Source: a virus (taxonomy: Duplodnaviria > Heunggongvirae > Uroviricota > Caudoviricetes). Taken from it: DNA of 64,000 nucleotides. The notes below the pieces were generated by a model. It did not search any database. It was not told where the DNA came from and saw only the letters and a program-made list of their open reading frames with translations. The stretch covers positions 1 to 64,000 of IMG/VR virus record IMGVR_UViG_3300031993_000024. One strand, given 5' to 3'. Position numbers and translations under genes: made by a program. The first letter of the stretch is position 1; the number at the start of each line of letters is the position of its first letter. Positions 4,167 through 41,420 of this stretch are shown here, in pieces.

Positions 4167-4171
4167 TAACT

Positions 4172-8530: not shown

Positions 8531-8565
8531 GCAACTAAGAAGAATACCTGTAAATGATGACATAT

Positions 8566-8598: not shown

Positions 8599-8605
8599 AT
8601 AAATA
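8598..8605 (+). promoter_or_regulatory. TATAAATA (T4 late-promoter-type -10)
   Basis: Exact TATAAATA 17 nt upstream of the 8622 ATG. Confidence 0.4.
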
Positions 8606-8621
8606 GAAAAAGACAGTTCAA

Positions 8622-10916: not shown

Positions 10917-10940
10917 AAACAAAACGGTAAACAAAACAAG

Positions 10941-11573: not shown

Positions 11574-11605
11574 ACTATTAAAATAACAAATAAAACAGTT
11601 TTAAA

Positions 11606-25838: not shown

Positions 25839-27536
25839 TTGATAGAAATGGAAATCAATAGTGTAAAAGCCCTTCAGGATTGGGGCAAGGTGATTGAAGA
25901 ATCAACCGGAATAAAAGACCCTGTAAAAGTTGCTTGGATGTCTAAAGTTTGCGCTATCCAAGATAACGACGATAAAATGAAACCAATTTTGGAATCTGCT
26001 TTCTGGGGACCAACATTGAATCCGTCAATGACTATGCAAGGCGCTGGCGCAATTCAATTCCCTAATGGTGGTGAAAATGGTTTCTCTGGTGTACGTAACG
26101 GTTCAGCAGATGCAATCGCTTCAAGTGTAGCTATCGCAATGCAAGCAGCTGCTCAAACAATCGCTCTTGACTTGTTGGCAGTTGTACCGGTATCAGCTCC
26201 TCAAGGTCAATATCGTTTCTACGATACTGTTTACGAAGGTGGCCGTATCAATGGTGACTTGCGTACTTACGACAAAGATGGTAATGTAAGCTACAAATTT
26301 ACAAATGCAGTTGCTGACCCATTGCTTGTTGAAGTTGTTGAAGCTTCTGAAGAAGGTGCAGAATTATTGAAGAAAGTTATCGAAGCTGAAGGTTCTGAAG
26401 CTCCTGTTATTGAACAAGGTGATTTCAAATTGACATTCGTTGAACTTGGCTTCATCTCTGGTAAACCAATCTTCTTAGTTGAAAGAAAAGACGCTAAACC
26501 GGGTGAATTCAATGCACGTCGTTTCAATGGCGCTCAAACTCTTGCAGAAGCATTCGAAGGTATCTTCGTATTCGGTCAAGTAAATACGAAAGAAAATCAC
26601 ATCACTGCATTCACAGGTCGTGACTTCTATGAAAACTCAGTAGAAAAAACTGGTTCAAAGAATCCTTACGACAACAATTTCGGTGTAGAACCATTCGAAC
26701 GTGAAGAAGGAGAAGCTACTACAGTTAACTTCTTGGGTGCTAAACGTACTTCTTTCGATTACAAAGTAAGAACTTACCAAGTTGGTTTCTCAGCTACTTG
26801 GGAACAAATCGAAGATGCACAGGCTGACGGTCAAGACATCATCGCTCAAATCGAAGGTGATGCTCTTAACGAATTGTCTCAATCTACTAACAAGTACATC
26901 TTAACTAAGATGTGGGAATTGGCTGGCAAACATGCTGACCGTCTTGAAGACAGAGGCGAAGTATTGAACACTTACTTCAAATCAGTTGCAGATGCTGACG
27001 AAGACATTCCTGCTGCTTACAAAGATTACAAACAAGTAGTTGTTGACAACGGTGGTGAAACTTCGTTGACACTTCAAGCACGTGTAATGCGTAAATTGTT
27101 GTATGCTGCTAACATCATCTCTCACGATTCTCGTTTGTCAGGTGGTAAATTCTTCGCTATCGGTTCTACTCAGTTCGTAACTGCAGTACAATCTGTAGCA
27201 GGTCTTACTCAAATCACTTTGCCTAACAACGTTCAATCTGTAGCTGATGCTCCTAATCCAATTGGACAGGTAAGCAACATTACATTGTACCAAGACCCGA
27301 ACCTTCCTGTAAACTATACAGGCGTTTTGGTTGGTCGTATCACTAAACCTAATGACCCAGGTTTGATTTTCTTACCATACATTATGGCTAAGAAAGTAAC
27401 TACGACAGCAACTGCGACATTCGCATACGCTGGTGCAATGAAATCTCGTTTCGCACTTCTTGCTGCTGGTCACTATCCAGATTTGCAATACTTGCGTTTC
27501 GATATGGCATTTAGCCCATCAATCGAACTTGTGTAA
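25839..27536 (+). CDS. major capsid protein (T4 gp23-like)
   Basis: AAQTIALDLLAVVPVSAPQGQYRFYDTVYEG aligns to gp23 AIPNLIAFDICGVQPMNSPTGQVFALRAVYG. GGENGFSGVRNGSADAI matches gp23* N-terminal GGDHGYNATNIAAGQTSGA. An I-L-E|S site at residue 52 is consistent with propeptide removal. Confidence 0.9.
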   Translation: MIEMEINSVKALQDWGKVIEESTGIKDPVKVAWMSKVCAIQDNDDKMKPILESAFWGPTLNPSMTMQGAGAIQFPNGGENGFSGVRNGSADAIASSVAIAMQAAAQTIALDLLAVVPVSAPQGQYRFYDTVYEGGRINGDLRTYDKDGNVSYKFTNAVADPLLVEVVEASEEGAELLKKVIEAEGSEAPVIEQGDFKLTFVELGFISGKPIFLVERKDAKPGEFNARRFNGAQTLAEAFEGIFVFGQVNTKENHITAFTGRDFYENSVEKTGSKNPYDNNFGVEPFEREEGEATTVNFLGAKRTSFDYKVRTYQVGFSATWEQIEDAQADGQDIIAQIEGDALNELSQSTNKYILTKMWELAGKHADRLEDRGEVLNTYFKSVADADEDIPAAYKDYKQVVVDNGGETSLTLQARVMRKLLYAANIISHDSRLSGGKFFAIGSTQFVTAVQSVAGLTQITLPNNVQSVADAPNPIGQVSNITLYQDPNLPVNYTGVLVGRITKPNDPGLIFLPYIMAKKVTTTATATFAYAGAMKSRFALLAAGHYPDLQYLRFDMAFSPSIELV

Positions 27537-27560
27537 TCTAACACAGTTAGAAACAACCAA

Positions 27561-27595
27561 GAAGGTCTTCCGTAAAAAGAAGACCTTCTTTTTTA
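27561..27595 (+). terminator. strong rho-independent terminator after the MCP gene
   Basis: GAAGGTCTTC-cgtaaaaa-GAAGACCTTC followed by TTTTTT. Confidence 0.75.
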
Positions 27596-27614
27596 TTGTG
27601 GTTTCTTGTAAAAT

Positions 27615-27629
27615 GTTGTTTTTTATATA
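27615..27629 (+). promoter_or_regulatory. GTTGTTTTTTATATA motif (copy 2)
   Basis: Exact 15-nt motif; the ATG at 27664 lies 35 nt downstream. Confidence 0.35.
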
Positions 27630-27663
27630 CAAACAAGTACAAACAACTAAAAACAAAACAAAA

Positions 27664-28149
27664 ATGGAAACAAGTATTTTTAAGACAGGCAGAACATTTG
27701 AGTATTCAATTGTTGAATTGAATGGAAATCCAAAGGAAATAGAAAACGTATTGGGTATACGTATTGGTGAGACTGGTTCCCTTCCTTTAATAGAGGCATT
27801 ATTGGAAGGACCTATTTATGCTATTCTGCAGACAGAAAAATGGGTGAATGTCTTCGGTAAGGAACAACAGAAAAAGACAATATTCGGAATAGATGTCTGG
27901 GATGCTTTAAAATGTCCACCATTTATAAGATGGGATATATGTAACCATCCTGTTATAGAAGGCTGTTGCGATACGATTGCATACGGACATTCAGGCGATG
28001 ACTTTGGATATGGAGGATTTATGAATGTTGTCGCATATACCAAAAAAGAAGGTGCTGAGAAAATGCTTCAATGGATAAAGCAAGTTGATGAAAGACAAGA
28101 GAAGCTTACAAATTTATATAATACTGGAATGACTATCAATGCAATATAG
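27664..28149 (+). CDS. hypothetical protein (N-terminus METSIFKTGRTFEY)
   Basis: The track ORF 27460..28149 overlaps the MCP gene 3' end. The ATG at 27664 follows the terminator and promoter motif and is the likely true start. Confidence 0.6.
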   Translation: METSIFKTGRTFEYSIVELNGNPKEIENVLGIRIGETGSLPLIEALLEGPIYAILQTEKWVNVFGKEQQKKTIFGIDVWDALKCPPFIRWDICNHPVIEGCCDTIAYGHSGDDFGYGGFMNVVAYTKKEGAEKMLQWIKQVDERQEKLTNLYNTGMTINAI

Positions 28150-28445: not shown

Positions 28446-28476
28446 AAGGTCTTCCGTAAAAAGAAGACCTTTTATG
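28446..28476 (+). terminator. second copy of the GAAGGTCTTC hairpin terminator
   Basis: AGAAGGTCTTCcgtaaaaaGAAGACCTTTTA; a near-duplicate of the 27537-27600 module. Confidence 0.5.
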
Positions 28477-29632: not shown

Positions 29633-31135
29633 ATGGAAAATAATTCTGGAAAACAAACGCAGGTAAAAGAGCAAGGCAACATAGTCGATTTGGCTATGCA
29701 GATGTTCGCAGGCGGCATTGAAAAGAATGTAGCGGAAATCGCTTTGAAAAACATGCAGTATGACAAGGCAGTCATCAATGATGTCCTTGAAAAAGTATGG
29801 GGCAAGAGCGACCATTTTCGCAAGTATTACAACCAAAGGATTCAGCAGTTCGGAAGCTTTAACGAGAAACTGAGAGACACGTTGCAAAAGGATTCCAATC
29901 TATTTGCTGCGAAAGCTCTTGAAACATTAGGCTTCTTGGAAGGTTTGTATCCGATGTCAAAAATCGAGAACAACAGTCTCTTACTTTACGAAGCTGCTCC
30001 ACAATTCGCAGCGAAGCTTATGGAGTACAGTCAGTCTGTTGAGGTCGTTAACGACTATATTCAGGAGGTACGTAAGCTGATAACTTCCGACATTTATGCC
30101 GTTGAAGCTATGAGGGTTATGGCAGGTTGCCGTAAATACGCAAACAGTCCTCTTTATTCCGAATTTGTTGAACGACTTTGCTCTGAGATAGAAGACAATA
30201 TCGGACGTAATGACGATGAAAGGAAACCTCTTGACAAGATTCTTGAAGGGTACGGACAGTTGCCGATAGTAAAGAAATATCTTGAAAAAATCAATCCGGC
30301 GCCTGTTGAATGTAACAGGAAACCAATGGACAGATATGTTCTCCCTGTTATGGTGAAGGAAAACGGGGATATTCTTTTTGGTATCAAGGATAAGTTGTAT
30401 GTACTCGAGAAAGCGAACGAATTCATACACGAGACACAGTTGAAATACCACGAGCCATCAAGCAACAGAACGATAAGGTTCGGTACCGTGCTTGAAGGCA
30501 TAGGCATGTTTAAGAATGAAGGTACAAAGCTTTCATATTATAACAATGTCATAACAGTCGGTGTCAACGGCATGTTTTCAATCAATGAGGCTGAATATTC
30601 AGATTTGTCCGGATATGTTCTTTCAGAGGCTGTAAGGCGTGCATCCCTTCTTTCTGATGTCAAGTTTGACGTAAGGCGTATGTCTGAGTTCATAGAAAAC
30701 AGGATGTTCATAAAAGACATATCTGACGTATGCAAGACTGAGATGTTCGCAAACGACGTCAATTCGAATGTAGCTATATTCCTTGAAGGCAAATACAACA
30801 GGAACAAGTATTGCGTGTTCTATGTCAGTGAGGGCAAGTCGATGTTGAAAGACTACAAAGACCTCAACGAGGCGGTAAGCGATATGTCTAAATGGACGTC
30901 GCTTGACGTGAAGACTATGATGCGTGAAAGACTTATAGACTACAACAGCAAGTCTGTAACGAACGAAATGAAGAAAATGATTTATGACCATGACCTTGAA
31001 ATACTTGAAAACCTTATGAATGTTACAGACGGTCTCAATCCTAAGGATAAAGGTCAGAAGCAGAAGCTTGACGAAGTTCGTGCATTGATTGCAGACTATA
31101 CAAATAAAATTCGTGAAAAGAAAGAAAATATCTAA
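29633..31135 (+). CDS. hypothetical protein (500 aa), probably structural
   Basis: Long ORF preceded by CATAAATATA; no motif recognised. Confidence 0.7.
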   Translation: MENNSGKQTQVKEQGNIVDLAMQMFAGGIEKNVAEIALKNMQYDKAVINDVLEKVWGKSDHFRKYYNQRIQQFGSFNEKLRDTLQKDSNLFAAKALETLGFLEGLYPMSKIENNSLLLYEAAPQFAAKLMEYSQSVEVVNDYIQEVRKLITSDIYAVEAMRVMAGCRKYANSPLYSEFVERLCSEIEDNIGRNDDERKPLDKILEGYGQLPIVKKYLEKINPAPVECNRKPMDRYVLPVMVKENGDILFGIKDKLYVLEKANEFIHETQLKYHEPSSNRTIRFGTVLEGIGMFKNEGTKLSYYNNVITVGVNGMFSINEAEYSDLSGYVLSEAVRRASLLSDVKFDVRRMSEFIENRMFIKDISDVCKTEMFANDVNSNVAIFLEGKYNRNKYCVFYVSEGKSMLKDYKDLNEAVSDMSKWTSLDVKTMMRERLIDYNSKSVTNEMKKMIYDHDLEILENLMNVTDGLNPKDKGQKQKLDEVRALIADYTNKIREKKENI

Positions 31136-31137
31136 TT

Positions 31138-31743
31138 ATGCCATTCTTAACAGGTTCAAATAACAGGTTCAAATTTTTGTTCCCAGCGTCGTTTGTGCCG
31201 GAAAGTATAGCTAAGAGATATGCTCCACTGATTAAGAGACTCCCTGACTATCCCGTAGATAATGTCAGGGATTTTCTTAATCTGGCAATTCAAGGCGTGC
31301 AGATTCCGCTCGGCATACAGCAGACACCGGTAACGCAGGGAGACCAAGGCTCGAGGGTACAAAGGCAATACAGAGGCAATGTAAGTATCCACGGACTTTC
31401 CGAAGGAACGATGACAGTATCTATGAAACTTGATGAAGGATACCTCGTATTTTTCATAATGGCTGACATCTGTTACTATTACTATTCACATTTCGGCGAG
31501 AAATATCTGCCTGAGGCTTTTTATCTTACGTTCCTTGATAACAGGAACCTTGAATTGTACAGGCTGAAATTTTCTGAAGTTCTGTTTACACAGGTAGGCC
31601 AGCCGCCGCAGCTTGACTATTCAAGTAAAGCAATAGATATGCAGAAAATAGACTGCACATTTGCAGTAAAGAAAATAAAATTCGTTCTTGAGAACGAAGA
31701 ATATGAAATACCTTCGGAATACGAAAAAGATTACGTTTTCTAA
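31138..31743 (+). CDS. tail-tube-family paralog (gp19/gp48/gp54-like)
   Basis: NRFKFLFP...AIQGVQIPLGIQQTPV...QRQYRGNVSIHGLSEGTMTVSMKLDEGYLVFFIMAD parallels gp19 RPNLFQVEI...FQCKATALPAGIVEKIPV...NRKINVAGDRTFDDWTVTVMNDEAHDARQKFVDWQ. Confidence 0.55.
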   Translation: MPFLTGSNNRFKFLFPASFVPESIAKRYAPLIKRLPDYPVDNVRDFLNLAIQGVQIPLGIQQTPVTQGDQGSRVQRQYRGNVSIHGLSEGTMTVSMKLDEGYLVFFIMADICYYYYSHFGEKYLPEAFYLTFLDNRNLELYRLKFSEVLFTQVGQPPQLDYSSKAIDMQKIDCTFAVKKIKFVLENEEYEIPSEYEKDYVF

Positions 31744-31757
31744 ATTGATTAGATAAA

Positions 31758-32726
31758 ATGAAATACAGGTCAAAGATTCTCATTAAGGATAAACAGAGGA
31801 AACAGGTAATACCAGCAAACAATAAGTTTGCAGTTGTGGCACGGAAAGGTAATACTGACAAGACAATGCCTATTAGGAAGTCAGCATTGCCGACAAACAT
31901 AGTTGACCCTAAACCTGAAGCAGTTCCTGTACTTGATGAAAGACAGGAATTTATCCAATGGTGTAAAGGCAAATATGACCTAAAGAATCCCAAGACGATA
32001 CAAGATAAGCTACAATGGCTTAAGCTTAACGATTTGTCGGAACTGAAAACGAGATGTGCCGATAAGATTCTTTTGCACGAATACTGTAAAGAAAAATTGG
32101 GAAAGGATATATGTATACCGATTCTGAAGGTATTTGACGGTAAGAACATTGATTTAGAAGGCCTTCCGAAGAGCTTCGTTCTGAAATGCAACCATGGCAG
32201 CGGAATGAACATTATAGTAAAGGATGAATCCAAACTTGACTATACAGAAGCCGTAAATAAATTATCGTCATGGCTTGATTCAGATTTTGCAGTCAAGAAC
32301 CATTATGAATGGCATTATCACGATATAGTCAGGAAAGCTTACGCCGAAAAGTATATGTTTGACTCGAAGCAGAAGGAATCGTTATATGATTACAAATTTT
32401 GGTGCTTTAACGGCGAGCCTAAACTGTACACGATAAATGCGGGACACGGGCATGGAGACATATTGTATTTCGATATGGATGACAACGTATGTAATTTTTA
32501 CGGGATACAGTATGACTTGAAGGATTTTGCAAAGCCGAAAAGTTTCGAGAAGATGAAAGAGATAGCAAAGATTCTTTCAAGTGACTTCAAATTTGTACGT
32601 GTCGACCTTTATGAGATTAAGGGTAAAATTTATTTAGGCGAGCTTACTTTCGCTCCAGGTTCTGGAATGTTTAGATATAAGAATAAGGAAGACGAAATAA
32701 TGGTAGGAGATATGTTGAAACTTTAA
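31758..32726 (+). CDS. ATP-grasp amidoligase-like protein (TupA-like ATP-grasp) with a shared 45-aa N-terminal module
   Basis: FVLKCNHGSGMNIIVKD...KFWCFNGEPKLYT...RVDLYEIKGKIYLGELTFAPGSG fits the TupA-like ATP-grasp family. Its N-terminus MKYRSKILIK...NNKFAVVARKGNTDKTMPIRKSALPTNI is paralogous to that of 33435. Confidence 0.6.
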   Translation: MKYRSKILIKDKQRKQVIPANNKFAVVARKGNTDKTMPIRKSALPTNIVDPKPEAVPVLDERQEFIQWCKGKYDLKNPKTIQDKLQWLKLNDLSELKTRCADKILLHEYCKEKLGKDICIPILKVFDGKNIDLEGLPKSFVLKCNHGSGMNIIVKDESKLDYTEAVNKLSSWLDSDFAVKNHYEWHYHDIVRKAYAEKYMFDSKQKESLYDYKFWCFNGEPKLYTINAGHGHGDILYFDMDDNVCNFYGIQYDLKDFAKPKSFEKMKEIAKILSSDFKFVRVDLYEIKGKIYLGELTFAPGSGMFRYKNKEDEIMVGDMLKL

Positions 32727-32741
32727 TAAGTCATATAAGCT

Positions 32742-33383
32742 ATGATTATAGTATCATTTACATCTTGGAAAGACAGAATAGAAAATGTACCAGCTGTCTG
32801 CAATTCGATTTTGAATCAATCATTAAAAGCTGACAGTGTAGAATTGAACTTATCAACGGATGAGTTTCCAAATAAAGAAAATGAATTACCAGGTGATGTG
32901 ATAAAATTAGTATCTGACGGACTACTTAAAATAAACTGGGTGAAGGAAAACACGAAATCTTTCAAAAAGTTTATACCTGTTCTTAAAAAATATTATGGGC
33001 AAGAATACCTTTTGCTTACAATAGACGATGATTTGCTATACGGCAGCGACTATATAAAAATGATGGTCTCTGAAGTTAAAGGTTGTGATGTATTTTGTCC
33101 CAATTCAGGCTTGGTAGGCAATAGAGCGATTTATAGGTCAAGTATATTTGATTCTTCATTTTGGGAAAAATTGCCAAATGATATAATTGCTACTGGCGTA
33201 GATGACACCTATATAAGGTTTTATCTCAATTATAAAAAAGCAAAACTTAAATTTAAGTTTAATCAAAGTATAAGAGACCAGATAAAAATATATAATTCTG
33301 TAAATCCTTTATGTAATTTTTATAGGAAAGATAATAGGGTTGATATTGCTGTAAATCTTTCAAGGAGACTTTGGCAAATATAA
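32742..33383 (+). CDS. putative glycosyltransferase-like protein
   Basis: MIIVSFTSWKDRIENV...LLLTIDDDLLY fits a GT-A-like N-terminus with a DxD motif. Sits in the sugar-enzyme neighbourhood. Confidence 0.4.
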   Translation: MIIVSFTSWKDRIENVPAVCNSILNQSLKADSVELNLSTDEFPNKENELPGDVIKLVSDGLLKINWVKENTKSFKKFIPVLKKYYGQEYLLLTIDDDLLYGSDYIKMMVSEVKGCDVFCPNSGLVGNRAIYRSSIFDSSFWEKLPNDIIATGVDDTYIRFYLNYKKAKLKFKFNQSIRDQIKIYNSVNPLCNFYRKDNRVDIAVNLSRRLWQI

Positions 33384-33434
33384 ATATAAAGATATACACA
33401 ATAATTGTTAATTCATTAAATACCAAGATTTTAA

Positions 33435-35183
33435 ATGAAATACAGGGCAAAGATACTTATTAAGAAAAGTCCGCAGAAACCGGTGATGCCAGTAAATAAA
33501 AAGTTTGCTGTTGTATCACAAAAAGGTAATTCTGGTAAGGCGATGCCTATCAGAAAATCATTACTGCCGATAAACATACGTAATCCAAAACTTGATTGGA
33601 ATAATGATGAGATTACACCAAAAATTATAGAGGCTTTTGAAAATCTTGAAATCTGGAAATATAAAAAGCCTAAGAAGAAATATCCTTACGCCAAGAAGAA
33701 AATCCATCTCATTCATTGGTGGTTTAAAGACAGGTCAAACCTTGTATTAAGCGATTTAGAGAAATTTCATTTTTCAATGTTGTGGCTTGCGGACTTCGAT
33801 AATAAGTTTGACGAGATACATTTCAATGTCGCGCTTGATAACGATACCAAGGAGGCAAGAGACTTTATAACAAAATCAATCAAAGAGCTTACCAAGAACG
33901 GGAAAGCCGATGTTAAAATAGAATTCAGAAAGAATAGCAAGAATACAGGTGAATTTGAAACCTGGGTAAAAATGCTGGACTTCGTTAGCAAGGCTGACAG
34001 CATAATTTTCTATTCTCATTTCAAAGGAGCTAAGTATAATGACGCCTCTAAGATACTCGACATAAAATACTGGTGTTACTTGATGTACCAAGGCTGTCTG
34101 ATGGACGGATGGGATTCTGCTCTTAAGACCCTTGAAGATAATTATTCCTATGGAGCGATAAGTTCATGCGCAAAGAGCGGACCGTTTAAGAAAGATGTCG
34201 ATATGATAAGGAACAGCTTGGAGGCTGACGGCATCAAAAATGACGGAATACATTATACAGGCACGTTCTATTTTTGGAATGGTGAGATGTGCAAGAAATA
34301 TTTTGCAAAGAATAATATCAAGCTGACTAAAAATAAATTGCTTGGTATAAAAGGAATAAGAATGAATTTCTTAAGCGAGACACTTTCTTCTAATTTGACG
34401 GGGAATGCGAGGACTTACTTCGGTGACAGGTCTGACGCCGGTATTACCAATATGTATAAAATGTATACCTACAACAAGTACGGCAAATACATAGAAAAGT
34501 TCAGGAATCTTTATAAGGATAATAACAGGAGCAAAAATATCTGTTACACCGTCATAATAAACGGGTATGACGACCTGAAGAATCCGCAGGTTATTTCACC
34601 GGCATGCAGGTATATCTGTTTTTCTGATGACAATCTGAAAAGCTATGTCTGGGAAATACATAAAATACCTGACGAGCTTAAGACGGTTGATGCTAAGAAA
34701 CAGTCAAGGATAATAAAGGTAATGCCTCAGAAGTATTTGCCTGAACACGAGTGGTCTATGTATATCGACGGCAACATAACCATCAATACCGACCCAGTCA
34801 AGTTCATATCGGATGTGTGTGATAACAACATATTCAGTATACCGCTTCATTTCAAGAGGACTTGTCTATATGATGAAGGCGATGTTGTAACAAGTTTCAG
34901 TATTGATAGTAAAGACGTCGTAAGCGCTCAAATGAAGAGATACCGCGATGAAGGATTTCCTCAAAATTACGGCTTGAATGAGAATAATCTTTTAGTTCGT
35001 AAGAATGACAAAGCTGTCAATAAAGTAAATGAAATGTGGGCGAACGAGATTCTTAAAGGTTCTTACAGGGACCAGCTGTCGCTGAGATATTGCTTATGGA
35101 AGCTTGATTTCGAGATAAACAACCTTCCAGCGACGATAGTCCGACAATCGAAGTATTTTACGTATAACCAGCATAAGAAATAA
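33435..35183 (+). CDS. multidomain protein: shared N-terminal module plus a putative glycosyltransferase-like C-terminal domain
   Basis: N-terminus MKYRAKILIK...NKKFAVVSQKGNSGKAMPIRKSLLPINI is paralogous to 31758. C-terminal ICYTVIINGYDDLKNP...ICFSDDNLK resembles GT-A (DUF616-type) proteins. Confidence 0.65.
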   Translation: MKYRAKILIKKSPQKPVMPVNKKFAVVSQKGNSGKAMPIRKSLLPINIRNPKLDWNNDEITPKIIEAFENLEIWKYKKPKKKYPYAKKKIHLIHWWFKDRSNLVLSDLEKFHFSMLWLADFDNKFDEIHFNVALDNDTKEARDFITKSIKELTKNGKADVKIEFRKNSKNTGEFETWVKMLDFVSKADSIIFYSHFKGAKYNDASKILDIKYWCYLMYQGCLMDGWDSALKTLEDNYSYGAISSCAKSGPFKKDVDMIRNSLEADGIKNDGIHYTGTFYFWNGEMCKKYFAKNNIKLTKNKLLGIKGIRMNFLSETLSSNLTGNARTYFGDRSDAGITNMYKMYTYNKYGKYIEKFRNLYKDNNRSKNICYTVIINGYDDLKNPQVISPACRYICFSDDNLKSYVWEIHKIPDELKTVDAKKQSRIIKVMPQKYLPEHEWSMYIDGNITINTDPVKFISDVCDNNIFSIPLHFKRTCLYDEGDVVTSFSIDSKDVVSAQMKRYRDEGFPQNYGLNENNLLVRKNDKAVNKVNEMWANEILKGSYRDQLSLRYCLWKLDFEINNLPATIVRQSKYFTYNQHKK

Positions 35184-36208
35184 TGGACGTTGTATTTGTA
35201 ACAGGCGCTGCCGGATTTATAGGCTCTAATGTTGTCAAAAGACTGCTTGACATAGGAAATGTCTATGTTATCGGTATAGACAACATGAATGATTATTATG
35301 ACGTAAGCCTTAAAGAATACAGGTTGGACCAGATAAAATCATTACATAGCGAAAACTTTCGGTTTATAAAGTCTGATATATCTAACAGGGATTATGTCTT
35401 TTCACTATTCGAGGAATACAAGCCGGACATCGTAATCAATCTTGCCGCTCAAGCTGGGGTAAGGTACAGTATAACGAATCCAGACGCCTATATGAACAGC
35501 AATGTCATCGGATTCTATAACATACTCGAAGCCTGTCGTAAATATCCTGTAACGCATCTGATATATGCTTCTTCAAGTTCGGTTTACGGCGGAAATACAA
35601 AGACTCCGTTTTCTGAGTCTGACAAGGTTGACGGACCTGTCAGCCTATATGCTGCTACCAAAAAGAGTAACGAGTTGTTCGCTCATACATACAGCAAGCT
35701 ATACGGAATACCTACGACAGGGTTAAGGTTCTTTACCGTCTACGGACCTGCAGGCAGGCCTGATATGGCTTACTTCAGTTTTACCGACAATCTTCTCAAA
35801 GGCAAGAGCATAAAAGTGTTTAATAACGGAAACTGTGTGAGGGATTTCACCTATATCGATGACATAACGGACGGCATTATGAGTATTGTCTATCGCGGAC
35901 ATATATCTGCCGATAAATCGAATGGAATACCTTACAACATATATAATATTGGAAGAGGACGTCCGGAAAACCTTATTGATTTCATATCAATATTATATCA
36001 GGAGCTTAGGGATTTCGGAATGCTGCCAGAAAACTACAAGCTGGATGAACATCTTGAATTTGTAGAGATGCAGCCTGGCGACGTGCCTGTCACGTATTCT
36101 GATACCTCAAAGCTTGGCCATGACTATCAATATTTCCCTAAAACTGATTTACGGGAAGGCCTGCATAAATTTGTTGAATGGTACAAGGAATATTATAAAC
36201 AGGCGTAA
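35183..36208 (+). CDS. NAD-dependent sugar-nucleotide epimerase (UDP-glucuronate 4-epimerase-like short-chain dehydrogenase/reductase)
   Basis: VTGAAGFIGSNV Rossmann motif, then YAATKKSNE, the YxxxK of short-chain dehydrogenases. FTVYGPAGRPDMAYFSF matches the UDP-GlcA 4-epimerase signature FTVYGPWGRPDMA. Confidence 0.85.
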   Translation: MDVVFVTGAAGFIGSNVVKRLLDIGNVYVIGIDNMNDYYDVSLKEYRLDQIKSLHSENFRFIKSDISNRDYVFSLFEEYKPDIVINLAAQAGVRYSITNPDAYMNSNVIGFYNILEACRKYPVTHLIYASSSSVYGGNTKTPFSESDKVDGPVSLYAATKKSNELFAHTYSKLYGIPTTGLRFFTVYGPAGRPDMAYFSFTDNLLKGKSIKVFNNGNCVRDFTYIDDITDGIMSIVYRGHISADKSNGIPYNIYNIGRGRPENLIDFISILYQELRDFGMLPENYKLDEHLEFVEMQPGDVPVTYSDTSKLGHDYQYFPKTDLREGLHKFVEWYKEYYKQA

Positions 36209-36235
36209 ACTGATAAAACTATAAATTGTAGATAT

Positions 36236-36249
36236 TGTTTTTTATATAA
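36236..36249 (+). promoter_or_regulatory. TTGTTTTTTATATA motif (copy 4), part of a 50-bp cassette shared with 37225-37274
   Basis: GTAGATATTGTTTTTTATATAAAAGCTTAAAAGATATGGAAAAATTAAAG; near-identical at 37225. Confidence 0.4.
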
Positions 36250-36262
36250 AAGCTTAAAAGAT

Positions 36263-37111
36263 ATGGAAAAATTAAAGACATTCAAAAGCTTCATCAAAGA
36301 AAGTATTGATTTGAATGCTTTCAGAAAAAATAATGGAAAGTACTATCCTGAAGATAGAGATGAATTGAAATTGCTTATGGAAGCTCTTATAGAGGAGAGA
36401 GGTTTTGAAGGTGACTTTAATGATATTGACACATCAAGGATTACTGATATGAGCCATTTATTTGCATTTGCCAGAAGTTTTAATGGTGATATATCACAAT
36501 GGGATACAAGTAATGTGACGAACATGCGAAGAATGTTCAGTAGTGCAGAAAAGTTCAATCAATCTATTGAAAACTGGGAGGTTTCAAATGTAAAAGATAT
36601 GGGAATGATGTTTATGTCTGCAAAAAGTTTCAATCAACCTATTGGAAACTGGAATGTATCAAATGTAGAGGATATGGGAAGTATGTTTAGTGCTGCAGAA
36701 AAGTTCAACCAATCTATTGAAAACTGGGATGTCTCAAATGTCAAAATTATGAGAAGTATGTTTAGTGCTGCAAAAAGCTTCAATCAGCCAATTGGAAACT
36801 GGAATATTTCAAATGCCTATTATATGCCTTTTATGTTCCATAGAGCAGAGAAGTTCAATCAACCAATTGAAAACTGGGATGTCTCAAATGTAAAAAATAT
36901 GAGAAGCATGTTTAGTTTTGCAAAATGTTTTAATCAGCCAATTGGAAACTGGGATGTTTCAAATGTAGAAGATATGGAAGCTATGTTTCATTATACTGAA
37001 TCTTTCAACCAAGATATTTCAAATTGGAATGTTTCGAAAGAAGTAATATGCAGGGATATGTTCGTTAATTGTCCAATCAAGCAGGAATATAAACCTGATA
37101 TAAAACAATAA
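36263..37111 (+). CDS. CTS-like leader (MEKLKTFKSFIKES) plus DUF285/BspA-like repeat protein
   Basis: Leader, then ~9 repeats of FNQxIxNWxVSNVxxMxxMF, matching the DUF285 mycoplasma-type repeat. Confidence 0.8.
   Translation: MEKLKTFKSFIKESIDLNAFRKNNGKYYPEDRDELKLLMEALIEERGFEGDFNDIDTSRITDMSHLFAFARSFNGDISQWDTSNVTNMRRMFSSAEKFNQSIENWEVSNVKDMGMMFMSAKSFNQPIGNWNVSNVEDMGSMFSAAEKFNQSIENWDVSNVKIMRSMFSAAKSFNQPIGNWNISNAYYMPFMFHRAEKFNQPIENWDVSNVKNMRSMFSFAKCFNQPIGNWDVSNVEDMEAMFHYTESFNQDISNWNVSKEVICRDMFVNCPIKQEYKPDIKQ
36470..37060 (+). repeat. in-frame ~75-78-nt tandem repeats encoding DUF285-type repeats
   Basis: FNQSIENWEVSNVKDMGMMFMSAKS, then FNQPIGNWNVSNVEDMGSMFSAAEK, and so on. Confidence 0.75.
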
Positions 37112-37232
37112 AGTAAGACAATATGAAAAGAGAACGTCAGAGTGAAATTCTTTGACACTTTCTTTTTATCGAGTAGCTTCGCATAGAATCTGAATATAAA
37201 TAACCGGGAAAACCATAAATAGATTGTGGATA

Positions 37233-37259: not shown

Positions 37260-37802
37260 ATGGAAAAATTAAAGTCTTATAAACAGTTAATTGCAGAATC
37301 AGATGATGCCGGAAGATTCTTGAAAGCTGATACAAGTGTAATAAGCGATTCCATTTATGAGTCTTTCTTTGAAAAGCCATTTCAAGGGGAAGAAAGAACG
37401 CTTGAAGATTTGTATGCTGTATCTAAGACATCCGACAAGTATAAAGGTCTTAGATTAAAAGAAATATCCAAGATTGAAACTGATATACAAATAATTCAGG
37501 CTATAGATAAATGGGTTGAGAAGAAAAACGTTCGTGATTATACTTTCCTGAAGAGAATTGGGCAAGGTTCGATGATAAACACGAAACTATATTCATCTAA
37601 AAATACGCATTGGGGCGGCATGGCGACAGTCGACCTTATGAATGGTATCGCGAAACATGTCATTTACGATTACTCCGAGACCATAGAAGGAGAAGCAATC
37701 GAAGGCTTCATGAAGATAGAGTATAATGATGATATGCTTGCGATATACCAGCAGTATGACAACCATACTGTAGGCAAGTATCATATCTATGTAAAACTGT
37801 AG
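37260..37802 (+). CDS. hypothetical protein with CTS-like leader MEKLKSYKQLIAES
   Basis: The track ORF 37224 starts at a non-ATG codon. The ATG at 37260 sits inside the conserved cassette. Confidence 0.7.
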   Translation: MEKLKSYKQLIAESDDAGRFLKADTSVISDSIYESFFEKPFQGEERTLEDLYAVSKTSDKYKGLRLKEISKIETDIQIIQAIDKWVEKKNVRDYTFLKRIGQGSMINTKLYSSKNTHWGGMATVDLMNGIAKHVIYDYSETIEGEAIEGFMKIEYNDDMLAIYQQYDNHTVGKYHIYVKL

Positions 37803-37807: not shown

Positions 37808-38278
37808 ATGAGTAAGGGATTGCTGACATATAGCAAGTTCTTAAAAGAGTCCGTAAGTCTTGACGACTTGACGAACCTCATCATTGAATGGGAACCTAAA
37901 TGGAAGGTATCTGTTGAGGAATATGATGAGAAGATGCGTAAGCTGAATAATACTGAATACTTGTTTGACCTTTCAAAATATACAGTAGACACAGATAAGG
38001 CTCGTTTAATTATTTGGATAGGTTCAAGAAAATCTGATGGCGTTATAGTCATAGACGCAAGGGCAAGGCTTAAAGATGAAAGCTTTTATAGTTCTGAACT
38101 GCCTGGTTCGAGGACGAATGCCGAAAGAGAGGTCATGAAAAAAATGATGAATGACAATACCTTACTTACAGCGATAACCGAATTTATTAACAAAAAGTAT
38201 CATACGAGGATTGCTGCTCTTGCCGTTAAGAACCGTATAACGATGTCAAACTGGCTTGGTGCCGAAACTGAAATATAA
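37808..38278 (+). CDS. hypothetical protein with a degenerate CTS-like leader MSKGLLTYSKFLKES
   Basis: 156-aa ORF. Confidence 0.65.
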   Translation: MSKGLLTYSKFLKESVSLDDLTNLIIEWEPKWKVSVEEYDEKMRKLNNTEYLFDLSKYTVDTDKARLIIWIGSRKSDGVIVIDARARLKDESFYSSELPGSRTNAEREVMKKMMNDNTLLTAITEFINKKYHTRIAALAVKNRITMSNWLGAETEI

Positions 38279-38279: not shown

Positions 38280-38753
38280 ATGGAAAAATTAAAGACTTTC
38301 AAAAGTTTTATCAATGAAGCTATTTCTGGCTGGGATAACGAAATCAATGATTATGTTGTCAAAAAAGATAGTAGAAAACGCGAACGAGGATATATATTCG
38401 TACCGAATGGTGAAGAATTATACAAGCGCGAATTTAGAGCACCTCAAATAGCTTGGGGTTTCGAAGACTACCACGTATCTTCTTGGGATAAAGTCAGACT
38501 GAGAAAAGAAGGTTACAGCGACGAACAGATTGAGCTTATAGATAAATATCTCGGTCTATGGACTTCATATCGAAGCACTTATGCTGTCGTAAGTAAGACA
38601 TCGTTAAGACAATCTGAGAAACTGACAGGAATCGCTACTCCAGACAAAGATGTCTATGTAACATACGAGGTAGGTGCTGTCGGAATATATCAGAAACGTT
38701 ACTATGACTTAGAAAAATTTGCGACCTTTGTAAAGAATCATTGTAAAAAATAA
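38280..38753 (+). CDS. hypothetical protein with CTS-like leader MEKLKTFKSFINEA
   Basis: The track ORF starts at TTG 38256, overlapping the previous gene. The ATG at 38280 begins the conserved leader. Confidence 0.65.
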   Translation: MEKLKTFKSFINEAISGWDNEINDYVVKKDSRKRERGYIFVPNGEELYKREFRAPQIAWGFEDYHVSSWDKVRLRKEGYSDEQIELIDKYLGLWTSYRSTYAVVSKTSLRQSEKLTGIATPDKDVYVTYEVGAVGIYQKRYYDLEKFATFVKNHCKK

Positions 38754-38798: not shown

Positions 38799-40706
38799 AT
38801 GGAACACTTAAAGACATTCAAACAATTTTATGAATCAAGGGAAGAGGACCTTGAACTGTACAATAAGGCGAAAGACGCATACTATAATGGCAACCCCATT
38901 ATGGGCGACGCTGAATTTGATGAACTCGAAAGAAAGCTTGGTCTTGAAAATCAGGGCTATATAGGTACACATCATTCTGATAATTATACCGTAAAACATC
39001 CGATAAAAATGGGAAGCCTTTCGAAAATACAGATAAAAGAAGGTTCAGACGGTCAAACCCATTTTGACTCATATATCGATACCCTTAACAAGTATTTCCA
39101 AAATGTTCCGGACGATGGAATCATTGAGGTAACTCCAAAATTCGATGGATGTTCTTTTGAGGTTGTGTTCGATGACGAAGGAAATGTTGAAGGAATATCG
39201 ACAAGAGGCGATGGTGAATACGGTACGGATGTAAGCCACTGGCTGAGTCCTTATGTAGACGAAATACCTTACAAGGAATTCCTGCAGAAAGGCAAGAAGC
39301 TCGTGGTAAGGGGAGAAGCTCTTATAAGCTTTAATGACTTTAACGCAGGCTATCAGGATAAATTCGCGAATACAAGGGCGTTTGTTGCTGGCATGTTCGG
39401 TCAGAAATGGGACGGAAAACAGGAACAGCTTGATATAAGGAAAGATTTGTCAATAGTTGTGTATGACTTCAGGCTTGTATCTCCGTCAGGCTCATATCAA
39501 TGGGTTGACTATAATACGGTTCCTGGCTATGACGTATGCGCATACAATGTGCTTACCTTTAAGAAATCAGAACTCAGTCCTATGGAATTCGCGAGGATTT
39601 ACGAAGAAATGGAGAAAGTTCGTAAGGATTACAAATTCCCTCTTGACGGTTTCGTGTTGAAACCAGAAGTGAAATACCGCAAGACGGAAGATGTTCAGCG
39701 TCCGAGCGACTGCGTCGCAATCAAATACAAACCAAGTATCCTCGAGACAGAAATCACGGAGATAGAATGGAATGTTGGAAAGACAGGAGAACTTTTCCCG
39801 AAGGCTGTGTTCAAGACAATAAAGATGGACGGAAAGAACATCAACAAGGCGTCATTGCATAACTACGGATATGTTAAGGACAATAACGTCGGAGTTGGTT
39901 CCATCATTAAGATTTCGCTTGCCGGCGATATAATTCCTTTCGTGTATGAAATCGTAAGAGACGGAGGCGACAATATGGCTCCTACCGAGAATGTGACCGT
40001 TAAAGGACCTCATCTTATGATTGACTTGTCTGCTGAAGAAAAAGTTGTCATAAAGGTAATAGCAGGCGCTGAGGCGATAAACATCAGAAATTTCAAAGAG
40101 GCGACGATACGTAAGATTATGCCTGAGTTCTTTACAAGCGAGGATGTAAAAATCGAGAATGTCCTTGACTTTATGAAAGATGAATCAATCGCTTTTATGA
40201 AGGAACGTTTCGGAACAGGGACATCGATAATGAATATCGTAAACGCTCTTACTGAAAGACGTAAGACTTTGACGCTTAATGAAATCATACTTGCCCTGCA
40301 GTTCCGTCTGTGCGGTAAGGTCGCTGCCGATGTCTGTGCCAAGTTTATCAAGGGCGACAAGTCAAATCATCTCATAGGCGTGCCTGGTGAAGTCAAGAGA
40401 TGGCTTCTTGATGAGAATTCTCAGGAATACCAGACTATTATGGGGTATGCGAATTTGTTCAAAGTTAATATGGCTCCGGAAGCGGCCGCTGCGTCGACGG
40501 CGATACCTGTGATTATGACAGGAAGTCCGAAAGAATTCGGATATGTTACCAAGGCAGCTTTCCTTGCCGCACATCCTGAATATATAGAGACATCTGACTG
40601 GAAGCAATGTAAAATCCTGTTTACGGACGATATGTCTTCGACATCCGGAAAAATGAAGAAAGCTGCCGCTCTTGGAGTTGAGGTGAAAACATACGGGGAA
40701 GCATAA
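38799..40706 (+). CDS. ligA: NAD-dependent DNA ligase (LigA-like domains Ia, NTase, OB, HhH, BRCT) preceded by CTS-like leader MEHLKTFKQFYES
   Basis: YYNGNPIMGDAEFDEL fits domain Ia. KMGSLSKI fits LigA PMLSLDNAF. TPKFDGCSF is the KxDG motif; STRGDGEYGTDVS fits ATRGDGTTGEDIT; FANTRAFVAGMFGQ fits motif IV NPRNAAAGSLRQ. LAGDIIPFVYEIV marks the OB end. HhH-like and BRCT-like regions (AIPVIMTGS...LGVEV) are present. Confidence 0.85.
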   Translation: MEHLKTFKQFYESREEDLELYNKAKDAYYNGNPIMGDAEFDELERKLGLENQGYIGTHHSDNYTVKHPIKMGSLSKIQIKEGSDGQTHFDSYIDTLNKYFQNVPDDGIIEVTPKFDGCSFEVVFDDEGNVEGISTRGDGEYGTDVSHWLSPYVDEIPYKEFLQKGKKLVVRGEALISFNDFNAGYQDKFANTRAFVAGMFGQKWDGKQEQLDIRKDLSIVVYDFRLVSPSGSYQWVDYNTVPGYDVCAYNVLTFKKSELSPMEFARIYEEMEKVRKDYKFPLDGFVLKPEVKYRKTEDVQRPSDCVAIKYKPSILETEITEIEWNVGKTGELFPKAVFKTIKMDGKNINKASLHNYGYVKDNNVGVGSIIKISLAGDIIPFVYEIVRDGGDNMAPTENVTVKGPHLMIDLSAEEKVVIKVIAGAEAINIRNFKEATIRKIMPEFFTSEDVKIENVLDFMKDESIAFMKERFGTGTSIMNIVNALTERRKTLTLNEIILALQFRLCGKVAADVCAKFIKGDKSNHLIGVPGEVKRWLLDENSQEYQTIMGYANLFKVNMAPEAAAASTAIPVIMTGSPKEFGYVTKAAFLAAHPEYIETSDWKQCKILFTDDMSSTSGKMKKAAALGVEVKTYGEA

Positions 40707-40724: not shown

Positions 40725-41420
40725 ATGAAAAAATTAAAGACATATAATCAGTTCCTTAAAGAAGGAAAAGGCATACGTAAAGAATATGACAGCAGCCTTG
40801 AAAATATGATGGATGAATACGGAAGTGATTCCTATGGTTCTGTCATAACAAAAGAGGTCGAGGAACTGCAGACAATGCTGAAGGACAAAAATCTTTTGGA
40901 GCCTGTCGATAAAGTTGTGTCTGTAATGTTATACCCTGAACAAGATTGGCATCCGATATATGCGATGATACGTCTTGAAAACGGCTTGCAGTACGTAACG
41001 ACAATTATAAATGTAGCCGATAAAAGCAAACTAAGACTGATGTCTGACGAGATGTATAAGATATTGCTTGAATGGCTTCAGAATGTCATAGATGAAGACA
41101 AGAAGAAAAAATCAAGTATGAAGTCAATGCCTGAAATCAAGGATTTGCTGCCTGAATATCTGAATATCGTCAGTAGATTTGTTGAAATGTTTAATATAGG
41201 CAGAGCCAAGTATGAAGCTAAGATATATAAGACAGACTCGATTCTTATTACATATAACGGAAGATATAATGGGGTTCTCATATTCTCCAAAACTGAGTAT
41301 GCCTATAATATCGAAGTACATGCTGTTACTGGCGGATTTTATGATACTGATTATTTGTATGATGAATCCAGCAAAGTTATTAAAGATGCCGTTAATTACA
41401 TTTTAAAACAACAACTATGA
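40725..41420 (+). CDS. hypothetical protein with CTS-like leader MKKLKTYNQFLKEG
   Basis: 231-aa ORF. Confidence 0.7.
   Translation: MKKLKTYNQFLKEGKGIRKEYDSSLENMMDEYGSDSYGSVITKEVEELQTMLKDKNLLEPVDKVVSVMLYPEQDWHPIYAMIRLENGLQYVTTIINVADKSKLRLMSDEMYKILLEWLQNVIDEDKKKKSSMKSMPEIKDLLPEYLNIVSRFVEMFNIGRAKYEAKIYKTDSILITYNGRYNGVLIFSKTEYAYNIEVHAVTGGFYDTDYLYDESSKVIKDAVNYILKQQL

Follow-up and report, generated by a model that had tools for sequence, protein, structure and literature searches.

A candidate glycan-building module in the late head-gene block of a T4-like jumbo phage, with a polycationic N-terminal tail shared by two of its enzymes

What do four consecutive enzyme genes among the head genes of a T4-like jumbo phage build, and why do two otherwise different enzymes begin with the same basic sequence? 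We analyzed a 64,000-nucleotide window (positions 1 to 64,000 of IMGVR_UViG_3300031993_000024) from this apparently lytic phage of 239 kb. The first-pass annotation had described a four-gene nucleotide-sugar/glycan module (here g1 to g4); an ORF check of the window found all four genes on the + strand at the coordinates then given, and the four enzyme assignments were supported. We tentatively favour, with a probability of about 0.45, a late-expressed cytoplasmic glycan-building module in which a polycationic tail tethers g1 and g3, and whose acceptor is a component of the virion head.

The module lies, on the same strand, between the portal, sheath, gp25, S77 protease and Gp23 major capsid protein genes and a group of genes with CTS-like head-targeting tags. 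This leader-gene cluster, predicted earlier from the sequence, is real: eight neighbouring genes bear the tag ME-KLKT[FY]K-F[IL]xE (∼13 residues), close to T4 MKTYQEFIAE. The tube-family paralog that the module was said to follow was not confirmed, since the 201-aa protein upstream has no Pfam or PHROG match and does not resemble the 188-aa ORF adjoining the sheath gene. Pfam and PHROG searches with the 500-aa upstream protein were also negative. Gaps among these two genes and g1 to g4 are ≤51 nt, with a 1-nt overlap between g3 and g4. After the hairpin behind the capsid gene, the following terminator-like hairpin on the + strand is at 37136-37156; no + strand terminator was found between 27.6 and 37.1 kb, and the 28.5-37.1 kb region may be one transcription unit. 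The module would be co-expressed with the late head genes.

Table 1. Features of the glycan module and its upstream context (window coordinates)
Feature	Position	Strand	Description
Terminator-like hairpin	27559..27590	+	3′ of major capsid protein gene; 12-bp stem, then T-run
500-aa conserved protein	29633..31135	+	function unassigned, upstream context; 59% identity to 497-aa L009 protein at same position
201-aa conserved protein	31138..31743	+	function unassigned; 57% identity to L009 201-aa protein
g1	31758-32726	+	322 aa; N-module and TupA-like ATP-grasp amidoligase
N-module on g1	31758..31913	+	codons 1-52; net charge +11; acquired copy, relaxed constraint
g2	32742-33383	+	213 aa; small GT-A fold glycosyltransferase with DxD motif
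g3	33435-35183	+	582 aa; tail, orphan central domain and TOD1/MUCI70 domain
N-module on g3	33435..33590	+	codons 1-52; net charge +14; native, strongly constrained, predicted disordered, polycationic
g3 central alpha/beta domain	33627..34424	+	∼residues 65-330; best-conserved part of g3 family
g3 C-terminal domain	34527..35144	+	TOD1/MUCI70 (DUF616, GT116-like) glycosyltransferase domain
g4	35183-36208	+	341 aa; UDP-glucuronate 4-epimerase-like extended SDR

Residues 84-321 of g1 match Pfam ATPgrasp_TupA (PF14305; E = 1e-40, 140 bits vs. a cutoff of 25) over the full profile (positions 2-241 of 241). With g2, Pfam, PHROG and NCBIfam searches gave no match, and its AlphaFold model (pLDDT 94.6) resembles, by Foldseek, the GT-A glycosyltransferases KfiA (6e-8), SpsA, PmHS2, TarP (5e-6), TarS and K4CP. 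DDD95-97 is invariant in 18 g2 homologues, as are T7, S8, R12 and D155, and g2 also carries an invariant DD154-155-x-Y157. The g3 central domain shows many near-invariant columns and a Rossmann-like beta-alpha pattern in the model; it has no Pfam or PDB sequence match, which makes it an orphan by sequence, and hhalign did not link it to g2 or to the g3 C-terminal domain. Residues 396-558 of g3 match TOD1_MUCI70, formerly DUF616 (E = 4.9e-16), as well as PHROG 26101 (glycosyltransferase); the Pfam match takes in no more than profile positions 119-290 of 314, and a family match of this kind does not reveal donor specificity. Finally, g4 matches Pfam Epimerase (E = 1e-55), carries the motif FFTVYGPAGRPDMA at residues 183-196, and is similar to PDB 5u4q (1.3e-101, 54.8% identity) and to the B. 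cereus UGAepi series 6zl6 (2e-45). It retains G8-x-x-G-x-x-G, S130-S133, Y156, K160, T185 and R192, and the equivalent residues in BcUGAepi are T126/S127/S128, Y149, K153, T178 and R185. In that enzyme Arg185, the counterpart of g4 Arg192, holds the UDP-GalA carboxylate (PMC12338863).

From these families we infer the substrates and the order of the reactions as follows: (i) g4 would convert host UDP-glucuronate to UDP-galacturonate; (ii) the GT116-like C-terminal domain of g3 would pass the uronic acid to the acceptor; (iii) further sugars may be added by g2, the small GT-A enzyme, and by the central orphan domain of g3; and (iv) g1 would use ATP to couple an amine or amino acid to the uronate carboxyl group as an amide. 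The last step has a precedent in the TupA-like ATP-grasp Cj1438C, which amidates the GlcA C6 carboxylate in the growing C. jejuni capsule chain (PMC11800379), and for TupA-like enzymes a role in attaching amino acids to surface polysaccharides has been predicted (PMC13419641).

The shared N-terminus reported by the first-pass annotation is real and beyond chance, with 34/52 residues identical between g1 and g3 (E = 8e-18), although it spans ∼52 residues rather than 45. At the DNA level 118/156 positions are identical, the first four codons among them; similarity begins exactly at the ATG, and none was found upstream of it. A six-frame search of the window revealed no copies beyond these two (next best E at least 0.1). 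The description as a domain did not hold. Residues 1-60 of g3 have pLDDT <30 and no secondary structure in the model, hence the N-module is predicted to be disordered, not folded; among 1.84 billion representative proteins it is confined to the g1 and g3 clusters of this phage lineage; and it is strongly constrained on g3 only. Distant g3 homologues, which do not align to the tail, have only M-[KL]-Y-R-[ST] and composition in common with it, and in one clade the extension is acidic or neutral instead. A basic character is also seen in the P0003 and P0012 tails and in the linker of P0002. Within the module, g2 and g4 (the latter an epimerase acting on a soluble substrate) lack the tail, which is carried only by the two enzymes whose predicted substrate is polymer-bound uronate. 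The tail most likely tethers its enzyme to a polyanionic or lineage-specific partner, with the acceptor, a membrane and the acidic glycan itself as candidates, and such tethering would hold both enzymes in one place.

In the relative L009, a g3 homologue starting MKYRT lies 3 nt beyond the homologues of the 500-aa and 201-aa proteins, and no TupA, g2 or epimerase gene was found at that locus. TupA homologues from five jumbo viral contigs (L001-L005) and from GenBank phages match g1 only from residues 57-77 onward and lack the N-module. Since g3 stands alone at the same position in L009 and TupA homologues elsewhere have no tail, the alignments indicate that the N-module is native to g3 and that the ATP-grasp gene took up the 5′ end of g3. 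We envisage that g3 was the ancestral core, that its tail and central domain stayed constant and its C-terminal transferase domain was swapped among lineages, and that a TupA-g2 cassette inserted just behind the g3 start, so that the g3 tail was copied onto the ATP-grasp gene. The two N-modules show no within-genome identity excess, which argues against ongoing gene conversion, and the paralogue dS (0.73) exceeds the orthologue dS (about 0.25-0.29), pointing to an old duplication.

The two copies have since evolved differently. Among orthologues, the g3 N-module is identical at 50/52 residues and has a dN/dS of 0.06-0.10, similar to the remainder of g3 (0.08), whereas the g1 copy has a dN/dS of 0.34-0.39 compared with 0.07 for the remainder of g1. 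At non-synonymous sites the g1 tail evolved ∼5 times faster than the rest of the protein (Fisher p = 0.027), a test with 19 substitutions only, in which weak constraint and neutrality are inseparable; the g1 copy may therefore contribute little. We consider it rather unlikely, but worth weighing, that the g1 tail is a mere by-product: the inserted TupA gene would have captured the g3 start codon and translation-initiation region, the 52 residues would be tolerated, and only the g3 copy would be functional. Consistent with this, 10/52 tail residues differ among g1 orthologues compared with 6% over the remaining protein, the identical first four codons and the invariant g1 residues 1-16 have the look of a retained initiation region, and TupA homologues elsewhere work without a tail. 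However, the frame has stayed intact, and dN/dS well below 1, across a divergence much older than the three-phage split, and no start further downstream has replaced the present one; two g1 orthologues (L011 and L014) have even lost Met37.

The acceptor is most likely a virion (head) component and not DNA. The position in the late head-gene block favours such an acceptor, and in Cellulophaga phage phi12:1 a DUF616-like glycosyltransferase likewise lies within the head-gene block. Gene position is nevertheless weak evidence, because morons frequently insert near head genes.

Alternatively, the module could be a "cell wall synthesis and modification" island that places amidated galacturonic acid onto lipid-linked capsule or O-antigen intermediates of the host, changing receptors and blocking superinfection or grazing, with the basic tail holding g1 and g3 against the anionic inner side of the membrane. 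In bacteria, all four families typically belong to capsule and O-antigen loci, and g3 relatives occur with RgpF and DUF4422 domains and adjoining NeuB. Comparable islands in the large T4-like cyanophages S-SCSM1, P-SSM2 and S-SCSM2R have been read as host-surface modifiers, although that role is itself only putative (PMC12801897); in S-SCSM1 the DUF616-like glycosyltransferase adjoins an enzyme that likewise amidates, asparagine synthase. Being polycationic and predicted to be disordered, the tail could plausibly serve as a peripheral membrane anchor, but the identity of the g3 tail among orthologues exceeds what generic electrostatic membrane binding needs. Moreover, g1 to g4 are all of soluble family types, and the module includes no membrane protein, initiating phosphoglycosyl transferase, flippase or polymerase. 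Given also that the phage is apparently lytic and the genes lie in its late structural block, a stage at which there is little to gain from altering the surface of a dying cell, we regard envelope remodelling as unlikely.

Hypermodification of the phage DNA, one of the roles first proposed for the module, is disfavoured and appears improbable. Here g2 and/or g3 would put the epimerase-supplied hexuronic acid on hydroxymethylated bases, g1 would amidate the sugar, the basic tail would keep the enzymes on the DNA, and the modified genome would be protected from restriction. There is precedent for this in phages, where an epimerase and a GT-A enzyme install hexuronic acid on 5hmC, the DNA GT-A enzymes having R...DDD...EDY/F motifs and being TarP-like (Pyle et al., bioRxiv 10.1101/2023.12.21.572611). 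The phage is T4-like, the tail is strongly basic, and g2 has the corresponding invariant residues and TarP match; these motifs and TarP likeness are, however, general to GT2-like GT-A enzymes. Such pathways are usually clustered (bioRxiv 10.1101/2023.12.21.572611), but the annotation of contig positions 19,673-102,624 (∼83 kb) includes no thymidylate-synthase-like hydroxymethylase, no TET/JBP dioxygenase and no C5-methyltransferase. GATC, CTAG, GATATC, ATTAAT and ATGCAT are all absent and CATATG occurs once, an extreme site avoidance indicating DNA that lies within reach of restriction enzymes and is not shielded throughout. The location in the late structural block and the polysaccharide-type families (TupA, DUF616, RgpF, DUF4422) also speak against a DNA acceptor.

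It is very improbable that the N-module is a long propeptide that takes both enzymes into the capsid for S77 protease cleavage and ejection into the next host: T4-like phages do target diverse proteins to the head by N-terminal propeptides cut after (L/I)xE (PMC9026906), the phage encodes an S77 protease, and one such motif lies just past the module (L59-D60-E61 in g1, I64-I65-E66 in g3), but a three-residue motif arises fairly often by chance in ∼15 residues and is not conserved in P0003 and P0012, T4 CTSs have 10-19 residues rather than 52 (PMC9026906), the phage's own CTS-like tag on the eight neighbours is unrelated to the N-module, and glycosyltransferases would find no nucleotide-sugar donors inside the capsid.

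Glycan toolkits of this kind are already known in cultured large phages, and the present module is a variant of them. The islands of S-SCSM1, P-SSM2 and S-SCSM2R also belong to T4-like phages >200 kb and combine nucleotide-sugar epimerases, multiple glycosyltransferases and an amidating enzyme, and their DUF616-like glycosyltransferase is 27.6% identical to g3 residues 421-574. They are, however, larger, have asparagine synthase in place of the TupA-like enzyme, are surrounded by metabolic genes and not by head genes, and lack a shared N-terminal tail. In the subclass II clusters of Pyle et al. a small GT-A enzyme with R/DDD/acidic-aromatic motifs adjoins a sugar epimerase, as here, and hexuronic acid is transferable (bioRxiv 10.1101/2023.12.21.572611); those clusters neighbour a C5-methyltransferase and 5mYOX or ThyS, in contrast to the ∼83 kb and the site avoidance described above. 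Virion glycosylation systems (mycobacteriophage capsid and tail-tube glycans; chlorovirus PBCV-1 A64R) use enzyme families unlike those of this putative virion-directed module, and the literature covered does not describe amidation of uronic acids for them.

Like the N-module, the T4 CTS (MKTYQEFIAE) is a short N-terminal sequence common to otherwise unrelated proteins of one phage, but it has 10-19 aa, is not basic and ends in (L/I)xE, whereas the N-module is polycationic and unrelated in sequence. The plant GT116 RG-I galacturonosyltransferase RGGAT1 (MUCI70 family) belongs to the Pfam family of the g3 C-terminal domain and uses UDP-GalA, the predicted product of g4; the partial match is distant and donor specificity is not transferable, and plant MUCI70-family enzymes, unlike g3, are Golgi membrane proteins. 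In C. jejuni HS:2, Cj1438/Cj1434 combine a GT2 domain and a TupA-like amidoligase with a UDP-GlcA pathway, and C6 amidation occurs on the growing chain (PMC11800379), so that a TupA-like ATP-grasp works with glycosyltransferases on a uronic-acid glycan, as we propose for this module. The uronic acid there is GlcA, whereas the phage epimerase implies GalA; and the C. jejuni ATP-grasp is fused to its glycosyltransferase, whereas the phage ATP-grasp is a stand-alone protein whose 52-aa tail recurs on the glycosyltransferase g3.

Four tightly packed genes (g1 to g4) form the module under study (see table): g1 is separated from g2 by 15 nt and g2 from g3 by 51 nt, g3 shares 1 nt with g4, and a conserved gene for a 201-aa protein ends 14 nt before the g1 start. 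The window is a section of the 238,631-bp ENA metagenome contig ERZ27257203 k141_1795869, and the genes for a T4-type portal, sheath, gp25, S77 prohead protease and Gp23-like capsid protein on that contig mark it as a T4-like jumbo phage. Megablast of positions 31000-37000 against GenBank phages gave no match, hence no close relative there. The full module is conserved in at least three related jumbo phages of gut or rumen type, here the window and the viral contigs L011 and L014. The four ORFs lie where the first-pass annotation had placed them, and its enzyme assignments were good: PF14305 for g1, a GT-A model for g2, TOD1/MUCI70 for g3 and an extended SDR for g4.

Several features were recorded around the module. 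Directly 3′ of the major capsid protein gene is a strong bidirectional terminator-like hairpin, of which a near-identical version (AAGGTCTTC...GAAGACCTT) recurs ∼900 nt downstream; a 229-aa ORF spanning the first hairpin is probably spurious. Genes downstream of the module encode an RtcB RNA ligase, a sigma-70 region-2-like protein that may serve as a late sigma factor, and a protein with a gpV/baseplate-hub OB domain. The 201-aa protein shows no similarity to the putative tube gene product and was rejected as its paralogue. A 201-aa protein of viral contig L010, with a weak Phage_YunG-like match, was refuted as a homologue of the window's 201-aa protein by BLASTP.

Coordinates of the module genes, neighboring features and related loci in other viral contigs.
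Record	Feature	Positions	Strand	Remark
Window	g1	31758-32726	+	ORF, 322 aa
Window	g2	32742-33383	+	ORF, 213 aa
Window	g3	33435-35183	+	ORF, 582 aa
Window	g4	35183-36208	+	ORF, 341 aa
Window	leader gene 1	360-1121	-	ME-KLKT[FY]K-F[IL]xE
Window	leader gene 2	36263-37111		same start
Window	leader gene 3	37260-37802		same start
Window	leader gene 4	37808-38278		same start
Window	leader gene 5	38280-38753		same start
Window	leader gene 6	38799-40706		same start
Window	leader gene 7	40725-41420		same start
Window	leader gene 8	43986-44702		same start
Window	229-aa ORF	27460-28149		probably spurious
Window	first hairpin	27559-27590		bidirectional
Window	second hairpin	28446-28471	-
Window	TnpB/IS605 OrfB-type gene	42122-43318	-
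Window	gpV OB-domain protein	45859-46533	-
Window	sigma-70 region-2-like protein	46819-47400
Window	RtcB RNA ligase	57920-59230
L001	TupA-like ATP-grasp locus	7851-11933		tail-less
L006	TnpB/IS605 OrfB-type gene	3269-4468	-
L006	g3 family member	8001-10097
L010	g3 family member	10001-12400

The g1 product matches PF14305 (TupA-like ATP-grasp) over residues 84-321 (E = 1e-40, 140.3 bits vs. a cutoff of 25, profile positions 2-241 of 241), and gave no match among PDB sequences. Cj1438C, the only TupA-like ATP-grasp characterized biochemically, acts on the growing capsule chain, where it amidates GlcA at the C6 carboxylate (PMC11800379). For other TupA-like enzymes the predicted reaction is amino-acid addition to surface polysaccharides, and a Klebsiella member of the family is tied to a protein modification instead (PMC13419641). 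No PHROG family matched the TupA-like ATP-grasp, and a weak relative was found in only four GenBank phage records; uronate amidation encoded by phages is therefore essentially undescribed. Five other jumbo viral contigs (L001-L005, 79-349 kb) carry a tail-less TupA-like ATP-grasp gene, followed by genes for a 507-aa glycosyltransferase with a DUF616-like C-terminus, a 221-aa DUF616-like protein and a putative archaeal-type SAM synthetase-like protein. The pairing of TupA with DUF616 thus recurs among unrelated jumbo phages.

No family in Pfam, PHROG or NCBIfam matched g2, and tblastn found nothing in GenBank phages. It has 24 homologues, and T7, S8, R12, D95-D97 and D155 are invariant. The predicted model (pLDDT 94.6) matches the GT-A enzymes KfiA, SpsA, heparosan synthase 2, TarP/TarS and K4CP; there were 97 PDB matches at E ≤ 0.001, with GT-A enzymes throughout among the matches listed. 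The model predicts a Rossmann-like GT-A fold with a DxD metal/nucleotide-sugar motif.

The g3 model shows a disordered N-terminus and two predicted alpha/beta domains (residues ∼65-330 and ∼365-570). The TOD1/MUCI70 domain (PF04765, formerly DUF616, CAZy GT116-type) occupies residues 396-558 and scores 59.3 bits vs. a cutoff of 21.4, covering profile positions 119-290 of 314 only; PHROG 26101 was also matched (E = 2.6e-25). Conservation within the family peaks in the central domain. A PDB-sequence profile search and Pfam at E ≤ 10 found nothing for it, and hhalign against the g2 family and the g3 C-terminal domain gave probabilities of ∼0.1%. The family, which includes homologues P0002-P0013 and members in L006 and L010, is modular: the orphan central domain stays constant and the C-terminal transferase fused to it varies, being DUF616, DUF4422 (PF14393) in P0012 and P0013, or an unassigned DUF616-like domain in P0004-P0011. 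P0002 also has an N-terminal RgpF domain, and its gene adjoins a NeuB gene. The founding GT116 enzyme, plant RGGAT1, the only one in GT116 for which UDP-GalA donor use is established, transfers GalA from UDP-GalA (PMC13010939).

The g4 product is an extended SDR that retains the NAD-binding motif G8-A-A-G-F-I-G, S130-S133, Y156 and K160. It reached no equivalog cutoff in NCBIfam. Its best solved relative is PDB 5u4q (1.3e-101, 54.8% identity), which bears only a generic depositor name, and the second best is the Bacillus cereus UGAepi series (6zl6, 2e-45). In the 6zl6 alignment, g4 residues S131-S133, T185 and R192 stand at BcUGAepi T126/S127/S128, T178 and R185. From this alignment, we take T126/S127/S128 and T178 to be the carboxylate-binding network. 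BcUGAepi Arg185 binds the UDP-GalA carboxylate, and the UGAepi product is UDP-GalA (PMC12338863). The substrate is called only probably as the UDP-glucuronate/UDP-galacturonate pair, since WbgU-type epimerases score nearly as high as 6zl6 (WbgU, 5e-44).

The first-pass annotation had correctly observed a common N-terminus on g1 and g3: 34 of the first 52 residues are identical (E = 8e-18), as are 118 of 156 bases from the ATG on. Its reading of this segment as a shared domain was revised: the segment is a disordered and basic tail that is native to g3 and was duplicated. Residues 1-60 are predicted to be disordered (pLDDT < 30, no secondary structure), and the net charge of the two copies is +11 and +14; on this basis the segment is a tail and not a domain. 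A third copy was absent from the window, from 20 kb past its ends and from every relative fetched. An exhaustive profile (HMM) search of 1.84 billion representative proteins found the tail in the g3 and g1 clusters only, two further hits being tandem-repeat artefacts. A word-indexed search of 5.8 billion proteins returned no candidates but was uninformative, as it also missed the window's own proteins, and tblastn against GenBank phages gave a single hit at E = 6.

In distant g3 homologues the N-terminal extension is comparable in length and mostly basic, but only M-[KL]-Y-R-[ST] is shared with the tail described here. This pattern fits a region co-evolving with a lineage-specific partner. In another clade of homologues (P0006-P0011) the extension is not basic (P0006 net charge -3) and carries an internal repeat (…LLKKMKEAPHVG… and …LLERMKSASHPT…), so the extension differs in kind among lineages.

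In L009, a related viral contig, homologues of the 500-aa (59% identical) and 201-aa (57%) proteins encoded upstream of g1 are followed, after 3 nt, by a g3 homologue starting MKYRT, and this locus lacks the TupA, g2 and epimerase genes. The g3 of another relative starts MLYRSKIEV. TupA homologues from the five other jumbo viral contigs and the GenBank phage records align to g1 only from residues 57-77 onward. Because g3 occurs in L009 without TupA, g2 or epimerase, and tail-less TupA homologues exist elsewhere, the tail is native to g3 and was acquired by g1 when a TupA-g2 cassette inserted just behind the g3 start. That insertion duplicated approximately the first 156 nt of g3. The duplication is old, given a paralogue dS of 0.73 vs. 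∼0.25-0.29 between orthologues, and the window, L011 and L014 each retain both copies. Gene conversion was discarded, as within-genome identities are no higher than between-genome ones.

The two copies differ in constraint. In g3, dN/dS is 0.06-0.10 for the tail and 0.08 for the rest of the protein, with 50 of 52 tail residues identical between orthologues. In g1, the values are 0.34-0.39 and 0.07 (Fisher p = 0.027), 42 of 52 residues are identical, and only the first 16 are invariant. Met37 was rejected as the actual start codon of g1 and g3: codons 1-36 show a dN/dS of 0.35, and g1 Met37 is Ile in L011 and L014. This contrast in dN/dS indicates clearly, at the sequence level, that the tail matters for g3, and leaves its value to g1 uncertain. 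A 156-nt partial duplication illustrates how a phage can furnish a newly acquired enzyme with an N-terminal extension that a resident one already has; were the g1 copy only a leftover, what remained would be an ordinary auxiliary glycan island.

From family knowledge we infer the chemistry of the module: g4 would supply UDP-GalA, g3 would transfer GalA, g2 and the g3 central domain would add more sugars, and g1 would amidate the uronate. Exactly two of the enzymes would contact uronic acid in polymer-bound form, and these are the two that carry the polycationic tail; the preferred tail function is therefore tethering, either to a polyanionic substrate or to a partner that both share. Given the strong constraint on g3, identification of the tail partner would point straight to the acceptor or the location.

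The tail is not a T4-type capsid targeting sequence (CTS; 10-19 residues, MKTYQEFIAE-like, ending in (L/I)xE): it has 52 residues of unrelated sequence, and the nearest (L/I)xE is L59-D60-E61 in g1 and I64-I65-E66 in g3. The CTS-like tag of this phage sits on other genes. Eight otherwise unrelated window genes, including those for a DUF285/BspA-like protein and an NAD-dependent DNA ligase, share a start that closely resembles the T4 CTS, with an [LIFM]xE site at residues 10-14. This leader and the S77 prohead protease suggest that the products are probably head-packaged ejection proteins; a packaged DNA ligase, if true, would be unusual. L006 has the same leader genes. A TnpB/IS605 OrfB-type gene (HTH_OrfB_IS605, OrfB_IS605 and Cas12f1-like TNB domains) lies on the opposite strand within the leader-gene cluster, and L006 has a similar gene a few kb upstream of its g3 homologue.

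The acceptor may be part of the virion. The module is located between the head genes and the eight leader genes on the same strand, no plus-strand terminator-like site occurs at 27.6-37.1 kb, lipid-carrier and export genes are absent from the module, and a DUF616-like glycosyltransferase gene lies within the head-gene block of Cellulophaga phage phi12:1. Alternatively, the host surface may be remodelled: the module families are typical of loci for capsule and O-antigen, and comparable islands of large T4-like cyanophages have this as their putative role.

DNA may also be the acceptor, as the g2 motifs resemble those of phage GT-A enzymes, and a phage GT-A enzyme and an epimerase produce hexuronic-acid-5hmC (Pyle et al., bioRxiv 10.1101/2023.12.21.572611). 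Those hypermodifying clusters, however, have a neighboring C5-methyltransferase and 5mYOX, or ThyS, whereas the genes called at contig positions 19,673-102,624 (∼83 kb) include no recorded ThyS-type hydroxymethylase, dioxygenase or C5-methyltransferase. The window is also purged of restriction sites: GATC and CTAG are absent (shuffle means 275 and 180, both strands counted), as are GATATC (32.5 expected), ATTAAT (17.8) and ATGCAT (12.4), and CATATG (1 vs. 27.5), GGCC (38 vs. 94) and CATG (136 vs. 256) are depleted. These counts suggest (i) strong pressure from several host restriction systems on unshielded DNA; and (ii) escape from restriction through site purging, which would be needless were the DNA globally shielded, although a motif-specific modification could coexist with avoidance of other sites. 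A novel hypermodification, with GalA on a hydroxymethylated base, an amine or amino-acid cap added by the ATP-grasp, and the tail as a DNA-binding handle holding transferase and amidoligase on the genome, is very improbable. A "DNA methylase" beside the DUF616-like glycosyltransferase in Cellulophaga phages was discarded as support, since the name rests on PF13578, a generic SAM methyltransferase domain. In phi12:1 (L019, NC_021791.1), the methyltransferase/glycosyltransferase pair (gp39-gp40) lies between a head-morphogenesis gene and the prohead protease and major capsid protein genes; its "DNA methyltransferase" may be a sugar methyltransferase.

To our knowledge, glycan-synthesis genes are common in large phages and their targets almost never known. 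The present module is small and chemically coherent (an epimerase, three transferase domains and an amidoligase), and offers a tractable case in which a T4-like phage may place an amidated uronic-acid glycan on its virion, its host or its DNA. The island of cyanophage S-SCSM1 has three epimerases, approximately eight glycosyltransferases and an asparagine synthase beside its DUF616-like glycosyltransferase. The module is a compact variant of such glycan islands, already known from large phages, and is distinguished by its TupA-like amidoligase and the shared tail.
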